Source: Burkholderiaceae bacterium (GTDB lineage Bacteria > Pseudomonadota > Gammaproteobacteria > Burkholderiales > Burkholderiaceae_E). Taken from it: a stretch of DNA of 64,000 bases. The stretch is taken from positions 681-64,680 of the forward strand of contig JAMLIR010000023.1 of NCBI GenBank assembly GCA_023954045.1, written 5' to 3'. Shown in pieces: positions 542-8,309 of this stretch (position 1 is the first letter of the stretch; every line of letters starts with the position of its first letter). The position numbers and the translations under genes are program-made. Below the pieces are notes generated by a model, which searched no databases, had not been told where the DNA came from, and worked only from the letters and a program-made list of their open reading frames with translations.

Positions 542-1219
542 ATGAAAAAAAATGCTGCAAGAACCCGGAGCGCCGCGGAGCGTCCGCCGCTCACCCGCGA
601 GGCCATCGCCTCGGCGGCTCTCGCGATCGTCGATCAGGACGGGCTGGAGGGCCTGTCGATGCGGCGGCTGGGCGCCGATCTGGGCGTGGAGGCGATGGCG
701 CTCTACCACCACTTCAGGAGCAAGGGCGAGGTGCTCGACGCCGTGATGGAGCGGCTGCTCGACGAGATCGAGTGGCCCGAGCGCGGTGCGGCGACGCCGG
801 CGGCGCGGCTGAAGAAGGTGTTCGCGTCGTACCGGCAACTGGCCGTTCGCCATCCGCGTGCGTTCATCCTGCTGGTCAACCGCCGGTTCAACACCGATCG
901 CAGCTTCGACCTTTACGAGCGCATCCTGGAGGCGATGGCCGATCTCGGGCTCGACGCCGCGTTGTCGGCGCGCTATTTCCGGATGTTCGGCTACTACATG
1001 AACGGCGCGGGACTGGCGGAGGTCGCGAGCCGGGCGGCCGCACCCGACGCGACGCCGGTCAGGCTCGAGAGCTTCCAGGAGGGTGCGCGCTATCCGCACG
1101 TCGCGGCGGTGGCGCGGCACCTGCGGGTCGCGAAGCTCGGCGCGATCTACGACTTCGGGCTGGAGATGATCTTCCGCGAGATGCTGAAGAGCGCGAAGAA
1201 GCCGGCGCGGAAAGCCTGA
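542..1219 (+). CDS. TetR/AcrR-family regulator with TetR_C-type C-terminal domain
   Basis: LTREAIASAALAIVDQDGLEGLSMRRLGADLGVEAMALYHHF HTH. Confidence 0.92.
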   Translation: MKKNAARTRSAAERPPLTREAIASAALAIVDQDGLEGLSMRRLGADLGVEAMALYHHFRSKGEVLDAVMERLLDEIEWPERGAATPAARLKKVFASYRQLAVRHPRAFILLVNRRFNTDRSFDLYERILEAMADLGLDAALSARYFRMFGYYMNGAGLAEVASRAAAPDATPVRLESFQEGARYPHVAAVARHLRVAKLGAIYDFGLEMIFREMLKSAKKPARKA

Positions 1220-1265
1220 TCCGCGACGCCGGGCGAATCGGCGGCGCGACCCCGGCTCGCCACGT

Positions 1266-2207
1266 TCATCGCCCGCGTCGCTCACCGAGCAGCGCCGCAC
1301 GCGTCACGGGGCTCTGCATCCGCTGCAACCACCACTGCAGCGCGCGCCCGCGCTCGGGCCGCTCGCCCTTGCGCCACGCGTAGCTGAGCGGGATCTTGTG
1401 TTCCGGTCGTTCGACGCGCTTGACGACCAGGCGCCCCGTGTCGATGTACGGCTGCGCCAGGCAGGTCGGCAGGAAGCCGACACCCAGCCCCCTGATCTGC
1501 GCATCCACTTTCGCGGGCATGCCGGCCACGGTGAACACGTCCTGGCCCGCCAGCAGTCCGATCGTGAGTCCGTCGCCGTGCCGGATCGAGTCGGCCACGG
1601 CCACCGCGCGATGGGGGCGGATCGCATCGTCGCTCAGCGGCTCGGGGGCGCTTGCCAGCGGATGATGCGGCGCCACCGCAAAGACGAAGCGAAGGCTACC
1701 CAGCGTTTCGCGCTGCAGGCCGGCCGCCGCGCCGGCGGTGATCACCACGCCGAGGGCGAGATCCGCCTGCCCCGAGGCGAGGGCATCCAGCGTCCCTGAG
1801 AGCGCCTCGGCGCGAAGCCTGAGCCGGGTCGGGGGTTGCAGGCGAAAGAACGCGTCGCACAGCTCCATCACGGCGGCGCCGTCGACGACGCTGTCGACCG
1901 CGATCGTGAATTGCGGCTCCCAGCCCGTGGCCACGCGCTTCACTCGGTTCGCGATCGCGTCGATGTCGGCCAGCAGGCGCGTGCCCTCGCGCAGCAGTTC
2001 GGCGCCGGCCTCGGTCAGGCGCGCCTGGCGCGAGCTGCGGTCGAACAGCAGCACGTCGAGCGCGTCCTCCAGCTGCCGCACGCGGTAGGTGAGGGCGCTC
2101 GGGGCGAGCCCGCTCGCGCGCGCTGCCGCGGCAAAGCTGCCGGCGGCGGCAATCGCCTCGAGCATCGCCAGGGAGTCCGGGGTCAGTACGTCGCGTGGTG
2201 TCGGCAT
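1266..2207 (-). CDS. LysR-family regulator (YhaJ-like)
   Basis: GSFAAAARASGLAPSALTYRVRQLED HTH; divergent from pirin. Confidence 0.92.
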   Translation of the reverse strand: MPTPRDVLTPDSLAMLEAIAAAGSFAAAARASGLAPSALTYRVRQLEDALDVLLFDRSSRQARLTEAGAELLREGTRLLADIDAIANRVKRVATGWEPQFTIAVDSVVDGAAVMELCDAFFRLQPPTRLRLRAEALSGTLDALASGQADLALGVVITAGAAAGLQRETLGSLRFVFAVAPHHPLASAPEPLSDDAIRPHRAVAVADSIRHGDGLTIGLLAGQDVFTVAGMPAKVDAQIRGLGVGFLPTCLAQPYIDTGRLVVKRVERPEHKIPLSYAWRKGERPERGRALQWWLQRMQSPVTRAALLGERRGR

Positions 2208-2220
2208 TCGGGGTCAGACC

Positions 2221-2237
2221 ATTCAAATAATTCGAAT
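2221..2237. promoter_or_regulatory. Putative LysR recognition site
   Basis: ATTC-AAATAATTC-GAAT dyad containing T-N11-A in the LysR/pirin intergenic region. Confidence 0.5.
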
Positions 2238-2313
2238 GATGCCACCGAATCCGCAGAGCCTCGAAGCGGCCGGCTAGTCCCAGAATCGATCTCATCGAAA
2301 GGAGGTTTCGACG

Positions 2314-3015
2314 ATGCTCACCCTTCGCAAATCACAGGACCGCGGCTACGCGGACCACGGCTGGCTGAAGAGCTACCACTCGTTTTCGTTCGCCGGCTAC
2401 TACGACCCGGCGCACATGGGCTGGGGCAACCTGCGCGTGATCAACGAGGACCGCGTGGCGCCGGGCACCGGCTTCGGCACGCACGGCCACCGCGACATGG
2501 AGATCATCAGCTACGTGCTGTCGGGCGAACTGGCTCATCGCGACAGCATGGGCAACGTCGTCGGCATTCCGCCCGGCGACGTGCAGCGGATGAGCGCGGG
2601 CACCGGCGTGCAGCACAGCGAGTTCAACCACGCCGAAGGCAAGACGACGCACTTCCTGCAGATCTGGATCGAGCCGAACGTGACCGGGATCGTGCCGGGC
2701 TACGAGCAGAAGGCGATACCGACGGTCGAGAAGCGCGGCGCGCTGCGCCTGGTGGCGTCGCCCGACGGGGCGCTCGGGTCGGTGACGATTCACGCCGACG
2801 CGAAGGTCTATGCCGGCCTCTTCGACGGCAGCGAGCGCGCCGAACTCGCGCTCGATCCGGTTCGAAAAGGCTACGTGCACCTGGTGCGCGGAAAGCTCGA
2901 GGTGAACGGCCAGTCGCTGAGCGCCGGCGATGCCGTGCTGCTGGAAAACGAGAGCCGGATCACGCTGGCCAACGGCGCCGATGCCGAGGTGCTGGTGTTC
3001 GATCTCGCTCCCTGA
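2314..3015 (+). CDS. Pirin-family protein (YhhW/YhaK-like)
   Basis: HGWLKSYHSFSF, GFGTHGHRDMEIISYV, HSEFN metal-binding motifs. Confidence 0.93.
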   Translation: MLTLRKSQDRGYADHGWLKSYHSFSFAGYYDPAHMGWGNLRVINEDRVAPGTGFGTHGHRDMEIISYVLSGELAHRDSMGNVVGIPPGDVQRMSAGTGVQHSEFNHAEGKTTHFLQIWIEPNVTGIVPGYEQKAIPTVEKRGALRLVASPDGALGSVTIHADAKVYAGLFDGSERAELALDPVRKGYVHLVRGKLEVNGQSLSAGDAVLLENESRITLANGADAEVLVFDLAP

Positions 3016-4328: not shown

Positions 4329-5237
4329 TCAACGACCGAAGAATTCGCGCAGCGCGCGCGCCGTCTCCTCCGGCAATTCCTCGGGAATGAAGTGCCCCGC
4401 CGGCATCGCCCGGCCGCTGACCGTGCCCGCGCACTGCGCGCGCCACAGCGTCATCGGATCGAACTGCCGCTGCACGACGCCGCGCTCGCCCCACAGCACC
4501 AGCAGGTCGCACGCGATCTTCTCTCCCGCGGCGCGCGATGCGCGGTCGTGCTCGAGGTCGATGCCCGCGCTCGCGCGGTAGTCCTCGCAGGCGGCGTGGA
4601 TCGTTTCGGGCATGCGAAAGCACCGTTCGTAGTCGGCCAGCGCCTGCGGCTCGATGTGGCCCAGGCCCTGGCTTCCCCATCCGCCGAGGTTCTTGTGAAG
4701 GTAGAACAGCGGGTCGCCGCCGATCAGGCGCTCGGGTAGCGGCGCAGGCTGGATCAGGAAGAACCAGTGGTAGTAGGCGCGCGCGAAGTCCATGTTCGTC
4801 GCGGCGTACATGTCGAGTGTCGGCGCGATGTCGATCACGGCGAGGCGCGCCACGCGCTGCGGGTGGTCGAGCGCCAGTCGGTGCGCGACGCGCGCGCCGC
4901 GATCGTGCGCGGCGACGAAGAAGCGCTCGTGGCCGAGCGCGTGCATCAACGCCGTGAGGTCGGCGGCGACGCGGCGCTTGCTGTATCGGGCGTGGTCCGG
5001 ATCGCCGGGCGGCTTGCCGGAGTCGCCGTAGCCGCGCAGGTCGGGCAGCACCAGGCGGAAGTGCGGCGCGAGACGCTGCGCGACGCGGTGCCACATCGCG
5101 TGCGTCTGCGGAAAGCCGTGCAGCATCAGCATCGGCGGCGCGTCGGCGCGGCCGCCGACCCGGGCGAACAGGCGGATGCCGTCCACTTCGTGGAATGCCG
5201 CGTCGAAGCCGTCGAACCAGCGAGGGTCTTGCGCCAT
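4329..5237 (-). CDS. Haloacetate (fluoroacetate) dehalogenase-type alpha/beta hydrolase
   Basis: HGFPQ, HDRGAR, YYHWFF, CEDYR, GHFIPEE motifs. Confidence 0.85.
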   Translation of the reverse strand: MAQDPRWFDGFDAAFHEVDGIRLFARVGGRADAPPMLMLHGFPQTHAMWHRVAQRLAPHFRLVLPDLRGYGDSGKPPGDPDHARYSKRRVAADLTALMHALGHERFFVAAHDRGARVAHRLALDHPQRVARLAVIDIAPTLDMYAATNMDFARAYYHWFFLIQPAPLPERLIGGDPLFYLHKNLGGWGSQGLGHIEPQALADYERCFRMPETIHAACEDYRASAGIDLEHDRASRAAGEKIACDLLVLWGERGVVQRQFDPMTLWRAQCAGTVSGRAMPAGHFIPEELPEETARALREFFGR

Positions 5238-5266
5238 CGGAGTCTCCTCGTCACAGTGATGCTGTC

Positions 5267-6571
5267 ATGGCTGCCGCCCTGCTGCAACGGTTCGTGAACG
5301 TGCGCCGCGGCGAGGTCGGGCCGGTGCTCGTCGCGGGGCTGTTCTTCTTCTGCGTGCTCACCGCGCTGATGGTGCTGAGGCCCGCACGCGAGGCGCTGGG
5401 CATGCAGCGCGGCATGGACGCGATCCGCTGGCTGTTCGTCGGCACCGTCGCCGTCACGCTGCTGGTCAATCCGGTGTTCGGGTGGCTCGTGAGCCGATAT
5501 CGCCGGCTCGCGTTCGTCGCCGCGACCTACCTGTTCTTCGCGTTCGGCCTGCTCGGCTTCTATGCGCTGCTGGTGCTGGCGCCGGCCAGCGTCGGGGCGC
5601 ACACCGGCCAGGTCTTCTACGTCTGGTTCAGCGTCTTCAATCTGTTTGCCACGATGCTTTTCTGGGCGCTGATGGCCGACCGCTTCACGCTCGAGCAGAG
5701 CAAGCGCCTGTTCGGCGCGATCGCGGTGGGCGGCACGCTCGGGGCGATCTTCGGGCCGTGGCTCGCGAGCGTGCTGGCGCGGCCGCTGGGAACGCCGGCG
5801 CTGTTGCCGGTCGCGGCCGGGTTCCTGGTGCTGGCGCTGGGGGCGGCCTGGTGGCTCGCGCGGCTGCCGGCCGAGTCCGACGCCGGCGACGGCGCGGCAC
5901 GGGCGGACGGGCGCGCGCTGATCGGGGGCAGCGCGTGGGAGGGCTTGCGCTCGGTGTCCCGATCGCCGTACCTGCTCGCGATCTGCGCCTACGTGCTGAT
6001 CGTCGCGGTGATGGCCACGTTCATCTACTTCACCCGGCTGCAGATGGTGGCGGCGCTCGGCGCCGACCTCGACCTGCGTACGCAGACCTTCGCGCGGATC
6101 GACATGATCACGCAGGCCGCGACGCTGGTGCTGCAGGCGGTCGTCACCGGACACCTGATGAAGCGGCTCGGCGCGTCGGTGGCGCTGGCGCTGCTGCCGG
6201 CGATTGCCGCGCTCGGCTTCCTCGGGCTGGCGATCGCCGGATCGCTCGTGGCATTGGTCGCGTTCGAGGCGACGTTTCGCGCGGTGCAGCGCGGCATCAT
6301 GCGACCCGCGCGCGAGACGCTGTTCACCACGGTCTCGCGCGCCGACCGATACAAGGCGAAGGCGTTCATCGACACCTTCGTCTATCGAGCCGGCGACGTG
6401 GTCGGCGCGCAGACCGAGGGGTTGCTGGGGCGGCTCGGCATGGGGCTCGCGGCGCTCGCCGCGTTCGCGGTGCCGCTGGCGCTGGTCTGGATGGCGCTCG
6501 GGGTATGGTTGGGGATGGCGCAGCGCGCGCAGGCGCGCGGCGCAGCGCAGGCGAAGGGAGTGAGCGCATGA
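5267..6571 (+). CDS. NTT/TLC-like (ATP:ADP antiporter family) MFS transporter
   Basis: About 12 TM segments; LRPAREALG, VFYVWFSVFNLF...FWALMADRF, RPARETLFT, YKAKAFIDTFVYRAGD; start set at ATG 5267. Confidence 0.8.
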   Translation: MAAALLQRFVNVRRGEVGPVLVAGLFFFCVLTALMVLRPAREALGMQRGMDAIRWLFVGTVAVTLLVNPVFGWLVSRYRRLAFVAATYLFFAFGLLGFYALLVLAPASVGAHTGQVFYVWFSVFNLFATMLFWALMADRFTLEQSKRLFGAIAVGGTLGAIFGPWLASVLARPLGTPALLPVAAGFLVLALGAAWWLARLPAESDAGDGAARADGRALIGGSAWEGLRSVSRSPYLLAICAYVLIVAVMATFIYFTRLQMVAALGADLDLRTQTFARIDMITQAATLVLQAVVTGHLMKRLGASVALALLPAIAALGFLGLAIAGSLVALVAFEATFRAVQRGIMRPARETLFTTVSRADRYKAKAFIDTFVYRAGDVVGAQTEGLLGRLGMGLAALAAFAVPLALVWMALGVWLGMAQRAQARGAAQAKGVSA

Positions 6572-7524
6572 CGACGCGACGCGATTGTCTGAAGGGAATC
6601 GGGGCCGCAGCCGGGATACTGGCGCTGGCGCCCGGCACGGCGTGGGGCGCCGACGCTGCGAAGGGCTCGCCGATCACCCGCGCGATTCCGAAGACCGGCG
6701 AGCGGCTGCCCATCGTCGGCCTGGGCAGTTCGGCGACGTTCTCGCAGGTCGCGAGCCGCGAGGACGTCGGCGCGCTGCGCGAGGTGTTCGCGCGCATGAC
6801 CGCGCTCGGCGGCACCGTCTTCGACACCGCGCCCGCCTATGGCGCCTCCGAGGAGGTCGCGGGGCGCATCGCGCAGGAACTCGGAATCGCGCAGAGGCTT
6901 TTCTGGGCGACCAAGCTCAACGTCGCGCCGTGGGGCGGCGGCGCGGCCGACCCCGCCGCCGCGCGCAAGCAGGTCGAGACTTCGTTCCGGCGCATCGGCA
7001 AGCCGGTGATCGACCTGATCCAGGTCCACAACCTGGGCGGCCTGCGCACCCAGCTGCCGATCCTGCGGGCGCTGAAAGAGCAGGGCCGCGTGCGCTACAT
7101 CGGCGTGACGACGACCTTCGAGGGCCAGTACGACGCGCTGCTGCGCACGATGCGCAGCGAACCGATCGACTTCATCGGCACGAACTACGCGATCGACGAC
7201 CGCGACGCCGAGCGAACGATCCTGCCGCTCGCTCGCGACCGCGGCATCGCGGTGCTGGTCTACGCGCCGTTCGGCCGTACGCGCCTGTGGCGGCGGGTGG
7301 CAGGGCGCACCGTGCCCGAGTGGGCGCGCGAGTTCGACGCGAGTTCGTGGGCGCAGTTTTTCCTGAAGTACGTCGCGAGCCATCCGTCGGTCACTTCGAT
7401 CACTCCGGCGACGAGCCGGCCGGAGAACATGACGGACAACATGGGCGCCGCGAACGGCCGGCTGCCCGACGATGTGATGCGCAAGCGGATGATCGAACTG
7501 GTCGATTCGCTGCCCGCGGCGTGA
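6568..7524 (+). CDS. Aldo/keto reductase with twin-arginine (Tat) signal peptide
   Basis: MTTRRDCLK + hydrophobic stretch + AWG; FDTAPAYG, ATK, DLIQVHN catalytic D-Y-K-H; 4-bp overlap with the upstream stop. Confidence 0.88.
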   Translation: MTTRRDCLKGIGAAAGILALAPGTAWGADAAKGSPITRAIPKTGERLPIVGLGSSATFSQVASREDVGALREVFARMTALGGTVFDTAPAYGASEEVAGRIAQELGIAQRLFWATKLNVAPWGGGAADPAAARKQVETSFRRIGKPVIDLIQVHNLGGLRTQLPILRALKEQGRVRYIGVTTTFEGQYDALLRTMRSEPIDFIGTNYAIDDRDAERTILPLARDRGIAVLVYAPFGRTRLWRRVAGRTVPEWAREFDASSWAQFFLKYVASHPSVTSITPATSRPENMTDNMGAANGRLPDDVMRKRMIELVDSLPAA

Positions 7525-7577
7525 TGCGCGTGGCCGCGCGATCGAATCGGCGCTGTGCCGTGAAGCTGGAGGACACC

Positions 7578-8309
7578 ATGAAACTCGATCGCCGGGAATT
7601 CCTGGGACTCGCCGGGCTCGCTCCGGCCTCGCTCGCGATCGGCGGCCTGCCGATCGTTGCGCGCGCCGCCGACGCCGGTCCGGGCAAGCCGAAGATCGGC
7701 ATCGTCGGTTCGGGCAATGTGGGAAGCGCACTGGGCAGCGTCTGGGTGAAGGCCGGACACGAGGTGATGTTCTCGTCGCGCAACCTCGAGCACGACCGGG
7801 CGCTCGCCGCGCAGCTCGGGCCGAACGCGCGCGCCGGCACGCCGCGCGAAGCCGCCGCGTTCGGCGGCGTCGTGATGATCTCGGTGCCCTATCGGTCGCT
7901 GCCCGACGTCGGCAAGGAACTCGGCGACCTGATCAAGGGCAAGGTCGTGATCGACACCTGCAACCCCTTCCCGGGGCGCGACGGCGAGATCGCGACCTGG
8001 GCGCGCGAGAAGGGCGTGGGCATGGCCTCGGCCGAGCTGTTGCCCGGCGCGCGCATCGTGCGCGCGTTCAATGCGATCGGCGCGGCGCGGATGGGCGCCG
8101 TGCACGAGCAGCCCGGGCGCATCGGCATGCCGATCGCGGGAGACGATGCCGAGGCGATCGCGGTGGCTTCGCGCCTGGTGCGCGAGGTCGGGTTCGAGCC
8201 GGTGCTCGTCGGCGGGCTCGCGAAGGGCAAATACCTGATGCCGGGGACGCCGCTGGCGGGCGAGCGCTCCCCGGAGGAGCTCAGGAGGATCGCCGCGGCG
8301 CTCGATTGA
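7578..8309 (+). CDS. NADPH-dependent F420-reductase-like oxidoreductase with Tat signal peptide
   Basis: MKLDRREFLG signal; KIGIVGSGNVG, SSR, VIDTCNP, VRAFN, AGDD motifs; GGAGG RBS. Confidence 0.85.
   Translation: MKLDRREFLGLAGLAPASLAIGGLPIVARAADAGPGKPKIGIVGSGNVGSALGSVWVKAGHEVMFSSRNLEHDRALAAQLGPNARAGTPREAAAFGGVVMISVPYRSLPDVGKELGDLIKGKVVIDTCNPFPGRDGEIATWAREKGVGMASAELLPGARIVRAFNAIGAARMGAVHEQPGRIGMPIAGDDAEAIAVASRLVREVGFEPVLVGGLAKGKYLMPGTPLAGERSPEELRRIAAALD

Follow-up and report, generated by a model that had tools for sequence, protein, structure and literature searches.

An NTT-related carrier linked to exported NADP(H) oxidoreductases in free-living Gram-negative bacteria: a candidate for periplasmic cofactor supply

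The locus

The window analysed here is a stretch of 64,000 nucleotides (G+C about 70%) from contig JAMLIR010000023.1 of an uncultured Burkholderiaceae bacterium, whose 4.0 Mb, 97% complete genome belongs to a GTDB genus shared with 'Lautropia sp. SCN 70-15'. Positions 5267 to 8309 are occupied by three genes in one orientation, named g1, g2 and g3 (Table 1): a carrier of the major facilitator superfamily (MFS), the precursor of an aldo/keto reductase (AKR) and the precursor of an NADP(H) oxidoreductase of the FNO fold. Together they are a member of a widespread, undescribed two-part module that consists of an MFS carrier related to the NTT nucleotide transporters and one or more exported NADP(H) oxidoreductases. 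The predicted export route of the enzymes is mostly twin-arginine translocation (Tat), with Sec-type or lipoprotein-type signals in some relatives.

The ATG of g2 lies within the stop codon of g1 (ATGA), and hence the two genes are translationally coupled. A spacer of 53 nt separates g2 from g3, whose ATG is preceded at 6 nt by the ribosome-binding site GGAGGA. The coordinates and the ATGA overlap bear out a preliminary description of this DNA as three tandem genes, the first two overlapping, and every motif quoted there was found in the three translations. Simple scans revealed neither a sigma-70-like promoter nor a terminator inside 5267-8309, which fits a single predicted transcript.

Table 1. 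Features of the carrier-oxidoreductase locus and its upstream boundary (positions in the window)
Feature	Positions	Strand	Description
g1	5267-6571	+	434 aa, 12-helix MFS carrier; Pfam MFS_1, 51.7 bits
g2	6568-7524	+	318 aa, aldo/keto reductase precursor; Pfam Aldo_ket_red, 99.3 bits
g3	7578-8309	+	243 aa, FNO-fold NADP(H) oxidoreductase precursor; F420_oxidored PF03807, 69.7 bits
Predicted Tat signal of g2	6568-6648	+	MTTRRDCLKGIGAAAGILALAPGTAWG; likely cleavage near AWG/A, from sequence only
Predicted Tat signal of g3	7578-7667	+	MKLDRREFLGLAGLAPASLAIGGLPIVARA; TIGR01409, 20.0 bits
Intergenic gap, 29 bp	5238-5266		separates the divergent starts of the alpha/beta-hydrolase gene and g1
Alpha/beta-hydrolase gene	4329-5237	-	divergent from g1

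The carrier and its kinship with nucleotide transporters

The g1 sequence, which includes FYVWFSVFNLFATMLFW and YKAKAFIDTFVYRAGD, has MFS_1 as its only Pfam match, and hmmscan gave no match of g1 to the Pfam model TLC (PF03219) even at E ≤ 10. When the TLC model was run against the whole genome, g1 alone was touched, in two collinear segments that scored 9.7 and 9.1 bits (cut-off 21), and on this score g1 was rejected as a true TLC member. A profile of 13 carrier members found as its first matches the solved NTT1 proteins of Chlamydia pneumoniae (9j3n, E 2e-12) and Arabidopsis (9j3j, E 2.6e-9), with the next MFS match, OxlT, at E 8e-4; the alignment to the NTTs spans transmembrane helices TM1 to TM12. 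In it the TM11 motif of g1, YKAKxxIDTxxYRxGD, is placed on the NTT motif KxKGKAAIDVV, and the lysine pair of KxKxxID is retained as K363/K365; the charged residues on which ATP/ADP exchange by AtNTT1 depends are K155, E245, E385 and K527. The AlphaFold (AF2) model of g1, built from 72 sequences (pLDDT 87, pTM 0.86), has twelve long helices and additional short amphipathic ones. NTT structures take Foldseek ranks 1 to 4 for this model: the top three have TMq of 0.79, 0.74 and 0.80 with E from 2e-10 to 1e-9, and the fourth, 9j3j (TMq 0.56, E 2e-7), lies close to the best non-NTT MFS protein (E 3e-7). By profile and predicted fold, the g1 family is a sister, though a distant one, of the NTT/TLC nucleotide transporters and lies outside Pfam TLC. 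Thus, of the 'NTT-like' label given in the preliminary description, the nearest kinship holds and membership of the Pfam family does not.

The family comprises 986 clusters at 50% identity with E ≤ 1e-30. Close homologues of g1 bear public names such as 'AAA family ATP:ADP antiporter' at JGI and 'MFS transporter' or 'NTP/NDP exchange transporter' at NCBI. Two loci (L110:2637-9217 and L115:2520-5384) encode MFS proteins of 942-1271 aa with long C-terminal extensions, distant from g1 (E 1e-43 to 1e-56), which are probably NTT-HEAT fusions of the kind reported by Major et al. 2017 (PMC5381601). The carrier gene of a Longimicrobiales metagenome-assembled genome (MAG; L089:6001-7278) has one in-frame stop and may be a pseudogene or a sequencing error.

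The two enzymes and their export signals

The g2 protein begins with MTTRRDCLKGIGAAAGILALAPGTAWGA, which contains TRRDCLK, and its D-Y-K-H tetrad is located at D86, Y91, K116 and H154, in agreement with the original assignment as an AKR with an intact tetrad. The tetrad is kept in 53-54 of the 55 partner AKRs aligned. None of the NCBIfam equivalog models was reached by g2, and the nearest solved AKRs (6kik, 5dan) are weakly similar, with a best E of about 1e-16; hence g2 may represent a new AKR family. Many AKR hits carried the remark '1 TGA inside', and selenocysteine was considered as its cause. Comparison of coordinates identified this TGA as the terminal stop included in the match, and the candidate was dropped.

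The g3 protein begins with MKLDRREFLGLAGLAPASLAIGGLPIVARAA, which contains DRREFLG, and also has GSGNVG and FSSR. These motifs and the PF03807 match uphold the reading of g3 as an F420-reductase-like Rossmann enzyme, and its relatives in the PDB are FNO and the NADPH domains of STEAP3/4. A function as F420 reductase or NpdG was rejected: the score with the NpdG equivalog model TIGR01915 is 49.7 bits, far under the cut-off of 149.8, and a cofE gene was not found in the genome, which is 97% complete, so F420 is not the partner of g3.

Both enzymes had been described as Tat-exported. The NCBIfam Tat-signal model TIGR01409 has a cut-off of 16.7 bits, which g3 passes, while g2 with 15.9 bits falls 0.8 bit short of it. 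The twin arginine (RR) is kept in 46-50 of the 55 partner AKRs, and the succession of RR, hydrophobic stretch and AxA-like site is retained among orthologues and paralogues with as little as about 36-45% identity. Most g3 relatives also have the RR, whether they adjoin a carrier or not; it is missing in two of the five copies at L118-L122 (FSRV, KR). TatC is encoded in the genome (228 bits). Conservation of the RR motifs in orthologues is thus established, and a Tat signal is predicted with a passing score for g3 and just under the threshold for g2. The two proteins are the only Tat-signal members of the partner families in this genome and both adjoin its only carrier copy, an arrangement far beyond chance.

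The near miss of g2 in the Tat-signal model leaves some room for the reading that the RR segments are not working export signals and that the enzymes stay in the cytoplasm, where the carrier would import their substrate. We consider this highly improbable. The signal architecture is conserved over the distances just given, several partner enzymes of other genomes pass the Tat-signal model, and the partners found in Luteimonas add a lipobox (LAAC). Moreover, epimerase-family paralogues that lack the signal stand beside a signal-bearing copy, which marks the extension as a specific feature.

Conservation of the linkage

The linkage was examined first in 41 related genomes, of which 25 have both carrier and AKR, none the carrier alone, four the AKR alone and 12 neither (Fisher p = 2e-7, not corrected for relatedness). 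Wherever contigs permit the check, the two genes are adjacent. The loci form an orthologue group, with carriers about 80-89% identical to g1 and the order MFS-AKR, and a paralogue group, with carriers about 40-45% and AKRs about 45-49% identical and the order AKR-MFS. The g3-type gene is accessory and accompanies only some AKR-type loci. The genomic co-occurrence of carriers and Tat-signal AKRs, which the preliminary description had proposed to look for, is therefore real, and the adjacency persists in different phyla and with either gene order.

For a wider survey, one genome per species was scanned with the carrier alignment, which gave 80 loci from Burkholderiales, Xanthomonadales (including cultured Luteimonas), Gemmatimonadota, Acidobacteriota, Phycisphaerales, a Fibrobacteraceae MAG and others. 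All open reading frames within 3.5 kb of the 80 carriers were clustered and then searched with hidden Markov models. An exported NADP-type oxidoreductase adjoins the carrier in 56 of the 80 loci (about 70%). It is a Tat-signal AKR in 34 loci and, in 16, a Tat-signal member of the NAD-dependent epimerase/dehydratase family (PF01370), a family of short-chain dehydrogenases/reductases (SDRs); three of four such members tested pass the Tat model. Classical SDRs with an N-terminal signal account for four loci, a D-2-hydroxyacid dehydrogenase with a Sec-type signal for one, and a Tat-signal FNO-like enzyme alone for one (L045). Besides the AKRs, four further families of exported NADP-type enzymes stand beside the carrier. 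The clustering brought out no further recurrent neighbour, be it an NAD kinase, a nucleotidase or a regulator, within 3.5 kb of the 80 carriers. Carriers with no partner have unrelated neighbours, e.g., CN-hydrolase, MutS, peptidase S9 or histidine kinase genes.

In an even draw of 394 good-quality Pseudomonadota genomes the carrier is present in 28 (7%), and an exported AKR, SDR or epimerase-family gene lies within 1.5 kb in 20 of the 29 loci. Extra carrier paralogues occur in eight of the surveyed genomes, and five of six are partnered. The cultured Luteimonas sp. Y-2-2-4F has three carrier paralogues in total (L063, L112, L113). One stands beside an SDR with a signal, one beside a Tat-lipoprotein AKR and one beside an RR-lipoprotein of the epimerase family, so that the exported NADP-type enzyme differs in each case. 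In a Vicinamibacterales MAG two carrier paralogues flank one Tat-signal AKR in the order MFS-AKR-MFS (L109:4054-7783), and a separate pair in the same MAG consists of a carrier and the Sec-signal D-2-hydroxyacid dehydrogenase (L041). At three loci (L077:3190-5971, L086:2704-5002, L090:3691-5968) the Tat-signal epimerase-family gene and the carrier are immediately preceded by a signal-less paralogue of the enzyme gene, and the two enzymes look like a cytoplasmic and a periplasmic version of one type. In a Rhodospirillales MAG (L093:1945-4843) the carrier is followed by three tandem AKRs with the single-arginine signals SRADFLK or SRGDFLK.

The AKR and the FNO-like enzyme might also form a coupled pair that exchanges reducing equivalents via Tat-co-exported NADP(H), in which case the carrier would prime or top up the pool or would be unrelated to the redox chemistry. 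The trio does recur in two distant groups, as MFS-AKR-FNO in Burkholderiales and as AKR-FNO-MFS in another Pseudomonadota genus, and in both samples the FNO-like gene never occurs with other partner types. However, it is present in only about 11 of the 34 AKR-type loci of the survey and in 5 of 12 in the even sample, so most partnered loci lack it, and it is also found alone, both beside a carrier (L045) and elsewhere in genomes. A gene present in a minority of loci cannot account for the conservation of the carrier-enzyme linkage. Recycling of bound NADP by such a pair, as originally put forward, therefore fails as a general mechanism; for the locus in the window, where the trio is of the recurrent kind, it is still alive. 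Overall, we regard the coupled pair as improbable.

What the partners share

The partner enzymes represent five families with several folds, and all are NAD(P) enzymes. By the rules established for Rossmann folds, the sequences of all partner families show an NADP-type signature following beta-2, with an arginine and no acidic residue: FSSR in the FNO-like enzymes, FNRG in the epimerase family, AARN or ATARR in the SDRs and ATRASSR in the 2-hydroxyacid dehydrogenase. This points to the cofactor, not the fold, as the common factor of the partners, and the diversity of families makes a common substrate unlikely.

The signals vary as well. Within one exported SDR subfamily, some members appear to have RR signals and others non-RR, Sec-like or lipoprotein-like ones; signals of the latter kinds, recognised by their sequence features, are seen at L041, L117, L126 and L069, and that of the D-2-hydroxyacid dehydrogenase at L041 resembles a plain Sec signal. 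An enzyme with a Sec-like signal would cross the membrane unfolded and with no cofactor, and would have to acquire its cofactor outside.

A maximum-likelihood tree of 95 carriers shows that both major carrier clades hold several partner types, and at least seven switches are required. The g1 clade, which is well supported and has at least 59% identity to g1, contains 36 carriers with AKRs, three with SDRs, two with epimerase-family proteins, one with a 2-hydroxyacid dehydrogenase, one with an FNO-like enzyme only and 12 with none. Host lineage is a better guide to partner type than carrier clade: Burkholderiales have AKRs with both clades and Gemmatimonadota epimerase-family proteins with both. 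There are 32 invariant and 61 near-invariant columns common to carriers of every partner type. They include many Arg, Lys, Asp and Glu residues inside predicted helices, and this suggests one common polyanionic substrate.

Proposed role and its main rival

A periplasmic NADP enzyme must either be supplied with cofactor or have a second substrate that recycles the cofactor it has bound. Just one gene is consistently linked to these exported NADP enzymes, a homologue of nucleotide antiporters, and this leads to the proposal that the carrier is a dedicated carrier or exchanger of NADP(H), or delivers NAD(P) in another way, across the inner membrane for the exported partner enzymes. We put the chances of this at about even. 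NTTs are antiporters of polyanionic nucleotides, one of which carries NAD+. By analogy with them, the g1 carrier would move a nicotinamide dinucleotide across the inner membrane, most likely by counter-exchange of NADPH outwards for NADP+ inwards. NADPH has four negative charges and NADP+ three. The exchange would therefore carry net negative charge outward and could be powered by the membrane potential, like the exchange of ATP and ADP in mitochondria. The cofactor, of about 745 Da, exceeds the usual porin limit and could stay in the periplasm. Such a supply would let periplasmic reductases turn over although the periplasm lacks cofactor-regenerating metabolism, and each carrier may be matched to an exported reductase of its own, which might dock on it directly. 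What the carrier transports, in which direction and by what mode, and what the AKR and the FNO-like enzyme act on, are all inferred. The broader claim that the MFS family as a whole consists of previously unrecognised NTT-related carriers of NADPH/NADP+ (or NAD(P)), which feed extracytoplasmic cofactor in free-living Gram-negatives, is more tentative, and we place it somewhat short of an even chance.

Several observations weigh against cofactor supply. Tat-signal AKRs occur with no adjacent carrier (G008, G009), and one 99%-complete genome (G003) has a Tat-signal AKR and no carrier at all, so the carrier is not always needed; conversely, about 30% of carriers have no exported oxidoreductase as neighbour. 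A generic supply would need one carrier per genome, whereas several genomes have multiple carriers, each with its own enzyme. These paralogous pairs imply either dedicated carrier-enzyme pairs, perhaps with docking, or enzyme-specific substrates. In the alignment to the NTTs, Ser122 and Tyr254 of g1 take the places of the glutamates in AELWG and EVTWK, respectively, which suggests a binding site related to, but different from, that of ATP/ADP carriers, and the g1 score lies under the Pfam TLC threshold. Finally, GFOR of Zymomonas is a Tat-exported NADP enzyme that works with a permanently bound cofactor.

GFOR is also the model for the main rival, in which the enzymes keep tightly bound NADP and recycle it between two substrates in a ping-pong manner, and the carrier exports a substrate or imports a product; candidates are lipids and anionic compounds with a carbonyl or hydroxy group. 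The carrier paralogues with different enzymes in one genome, the Tat-signal AKRs with no carrier and the lack of conservation of the acidic NTT residues are all in keeping with it. So is the clustering of partner labels on the carrier tree (22 changes vs. 40 for shuffled labels), and carriers and AKRs appear to have co-diversified: AKRs are about 36-49% identical to g2 beside distant carriers and about 65-85% beside g1-like ones. On the other hand, five families of several folds would hardly share one substrate, and even carriers with about 60% identity or more to g1 adjoin AKR, SDR, epimerase, 2-hydroxyacid-dehydrogenase or FNO-like partners. Partners with putative Sec signals could not leave with the cofactor bound. 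In the nearest family, every member that has been characterised is a nucleotide carrier (PMC5381601). A transporter of substrate or product is therefore unlikely in our estimate, clearly less so than the coupled pair, and cofactor supply remains the reading that we prefer.

Surroundings of the locus

The start of the alpha/beta-hydrolase gene is 29 bp from that of g1, and the promoters of this divergent pair must therefore sit inside coding sequence; no sigma-70-like site was found for the pair (4329-5266). Downstream of g3, an AMP-binding enzyme and a methyltransferase are encoded on the opposite strand. Further upstream (542-3015) lie genes of a TetR-family regulator, a LysR-family regulator and a divergent pirin/quercetinase-like protein, which are ordinary-looking and for which no link to the g1-g2-g3 operon was seen in other genomes.

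Relation to known systems

The best profile and fold match of the carrier is the NTT/TLC family (AAA family, TC 2.A.12), with AtNTT1, Chlamydia Npt1/NTT1 and the NAD+/ADP carrier NTT4 of Protochlamydia. The two families have the same 12-helix MFS fold and share the FYV...FW motif of TM4 and KxKxxID in TM11. In contrast to NTT/TLC proteins, members of the g1 family are about 60-150 residues shorter and always single-domain, fall under the Pfam cut-off, have Ser and Tyr for the two Glu residues, and are found in free-living bacteria, genetically tied to exported oxidoreductases. The proposed direction differs too, being outward supply in the g1 family and theft of host nucleotides in the NTT/TLC family. 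Major et al. 2017 (PMC5381601) reported NTT homologues of unknown function in free-living bacteria, but their set consists of PF03219-type proteins and HEAT fusions and does not cover the g1 family.

Among exported enzymes, GFOR of Zymomonas mobilis is similar in being Tat-exported, periplasmic and NADP-dependent. However, it is a Gfo/Idh/MocA enzyme with permanently bound NADP, two-substrate recycling and no linked carrier, whereas the partners described here belong to the AKR, SDR, FNO-like and 2-hydroxyacid-dehydrogenase families and stand beside a nucleotide-carrier homologue. A functional analogy exists with DsbD/CcdA, MsrQ and STEAP-type reductases, which deliver reducing equivalents derived from cytoplasmic NADPH to the outside, and the fold of g3 matches the STEAP NADPH domain. 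Those systems move electrons via cysteines, haem or flavin, whereas here the cofactor molecule itself would cross. The Caulobacter ceramide reductase CerR, an NAD(P)H-type SDR of the NDUFA9/epimerase family, was shown by experiment to be periplasmic, and its source of reductant was stated to be unknown (2024 JBC, PMC11087976). It belongs to the same broad family as the Tat-signal epimerase-family partners, and no carrier link has been reported for it. Literature searches for AKRs exported by Tat, for NAD(P)H in the periplasm and for NADPH transporters of bacteria turned up no such module, and only the CerR paper proved relevant. The component proteins come from known superfamilies; what is new is the module, together with the role proposed for it.

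Implications

To our knowledge, the periplasm is taught to lack NAD(P)H, and the few periplasmic NAD(P) enzymes that we know of either have a bound cofactor, as in GFOR, or are unexplained in this respect, as in CerR. The conserved coupling of a nucleotide-carrier homologue with exported NADP enzymes is a candidate for the missing supply of periplasmic cofactor. Luteimonas sp. Y-2-2-4F, with its three differently partnered carrier paralogues, should be a good experimental organism. If the proposal is true, uncharacterised periplasmic reductases would be opened to study and could serve periplasmic biocatalysis. A family of about 1,000 clusters, now labelled 'MFS transporter' or 'ATP:ADP antiporter', would be explained, and the NTT superfamily would be extended by a further class of substrates and, in free-living bacteria, by a new physiological role. 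In many bacteria of soil and water, NADPH-dependent chemistry would then take place in the periplasm, contrary to the textbooks.

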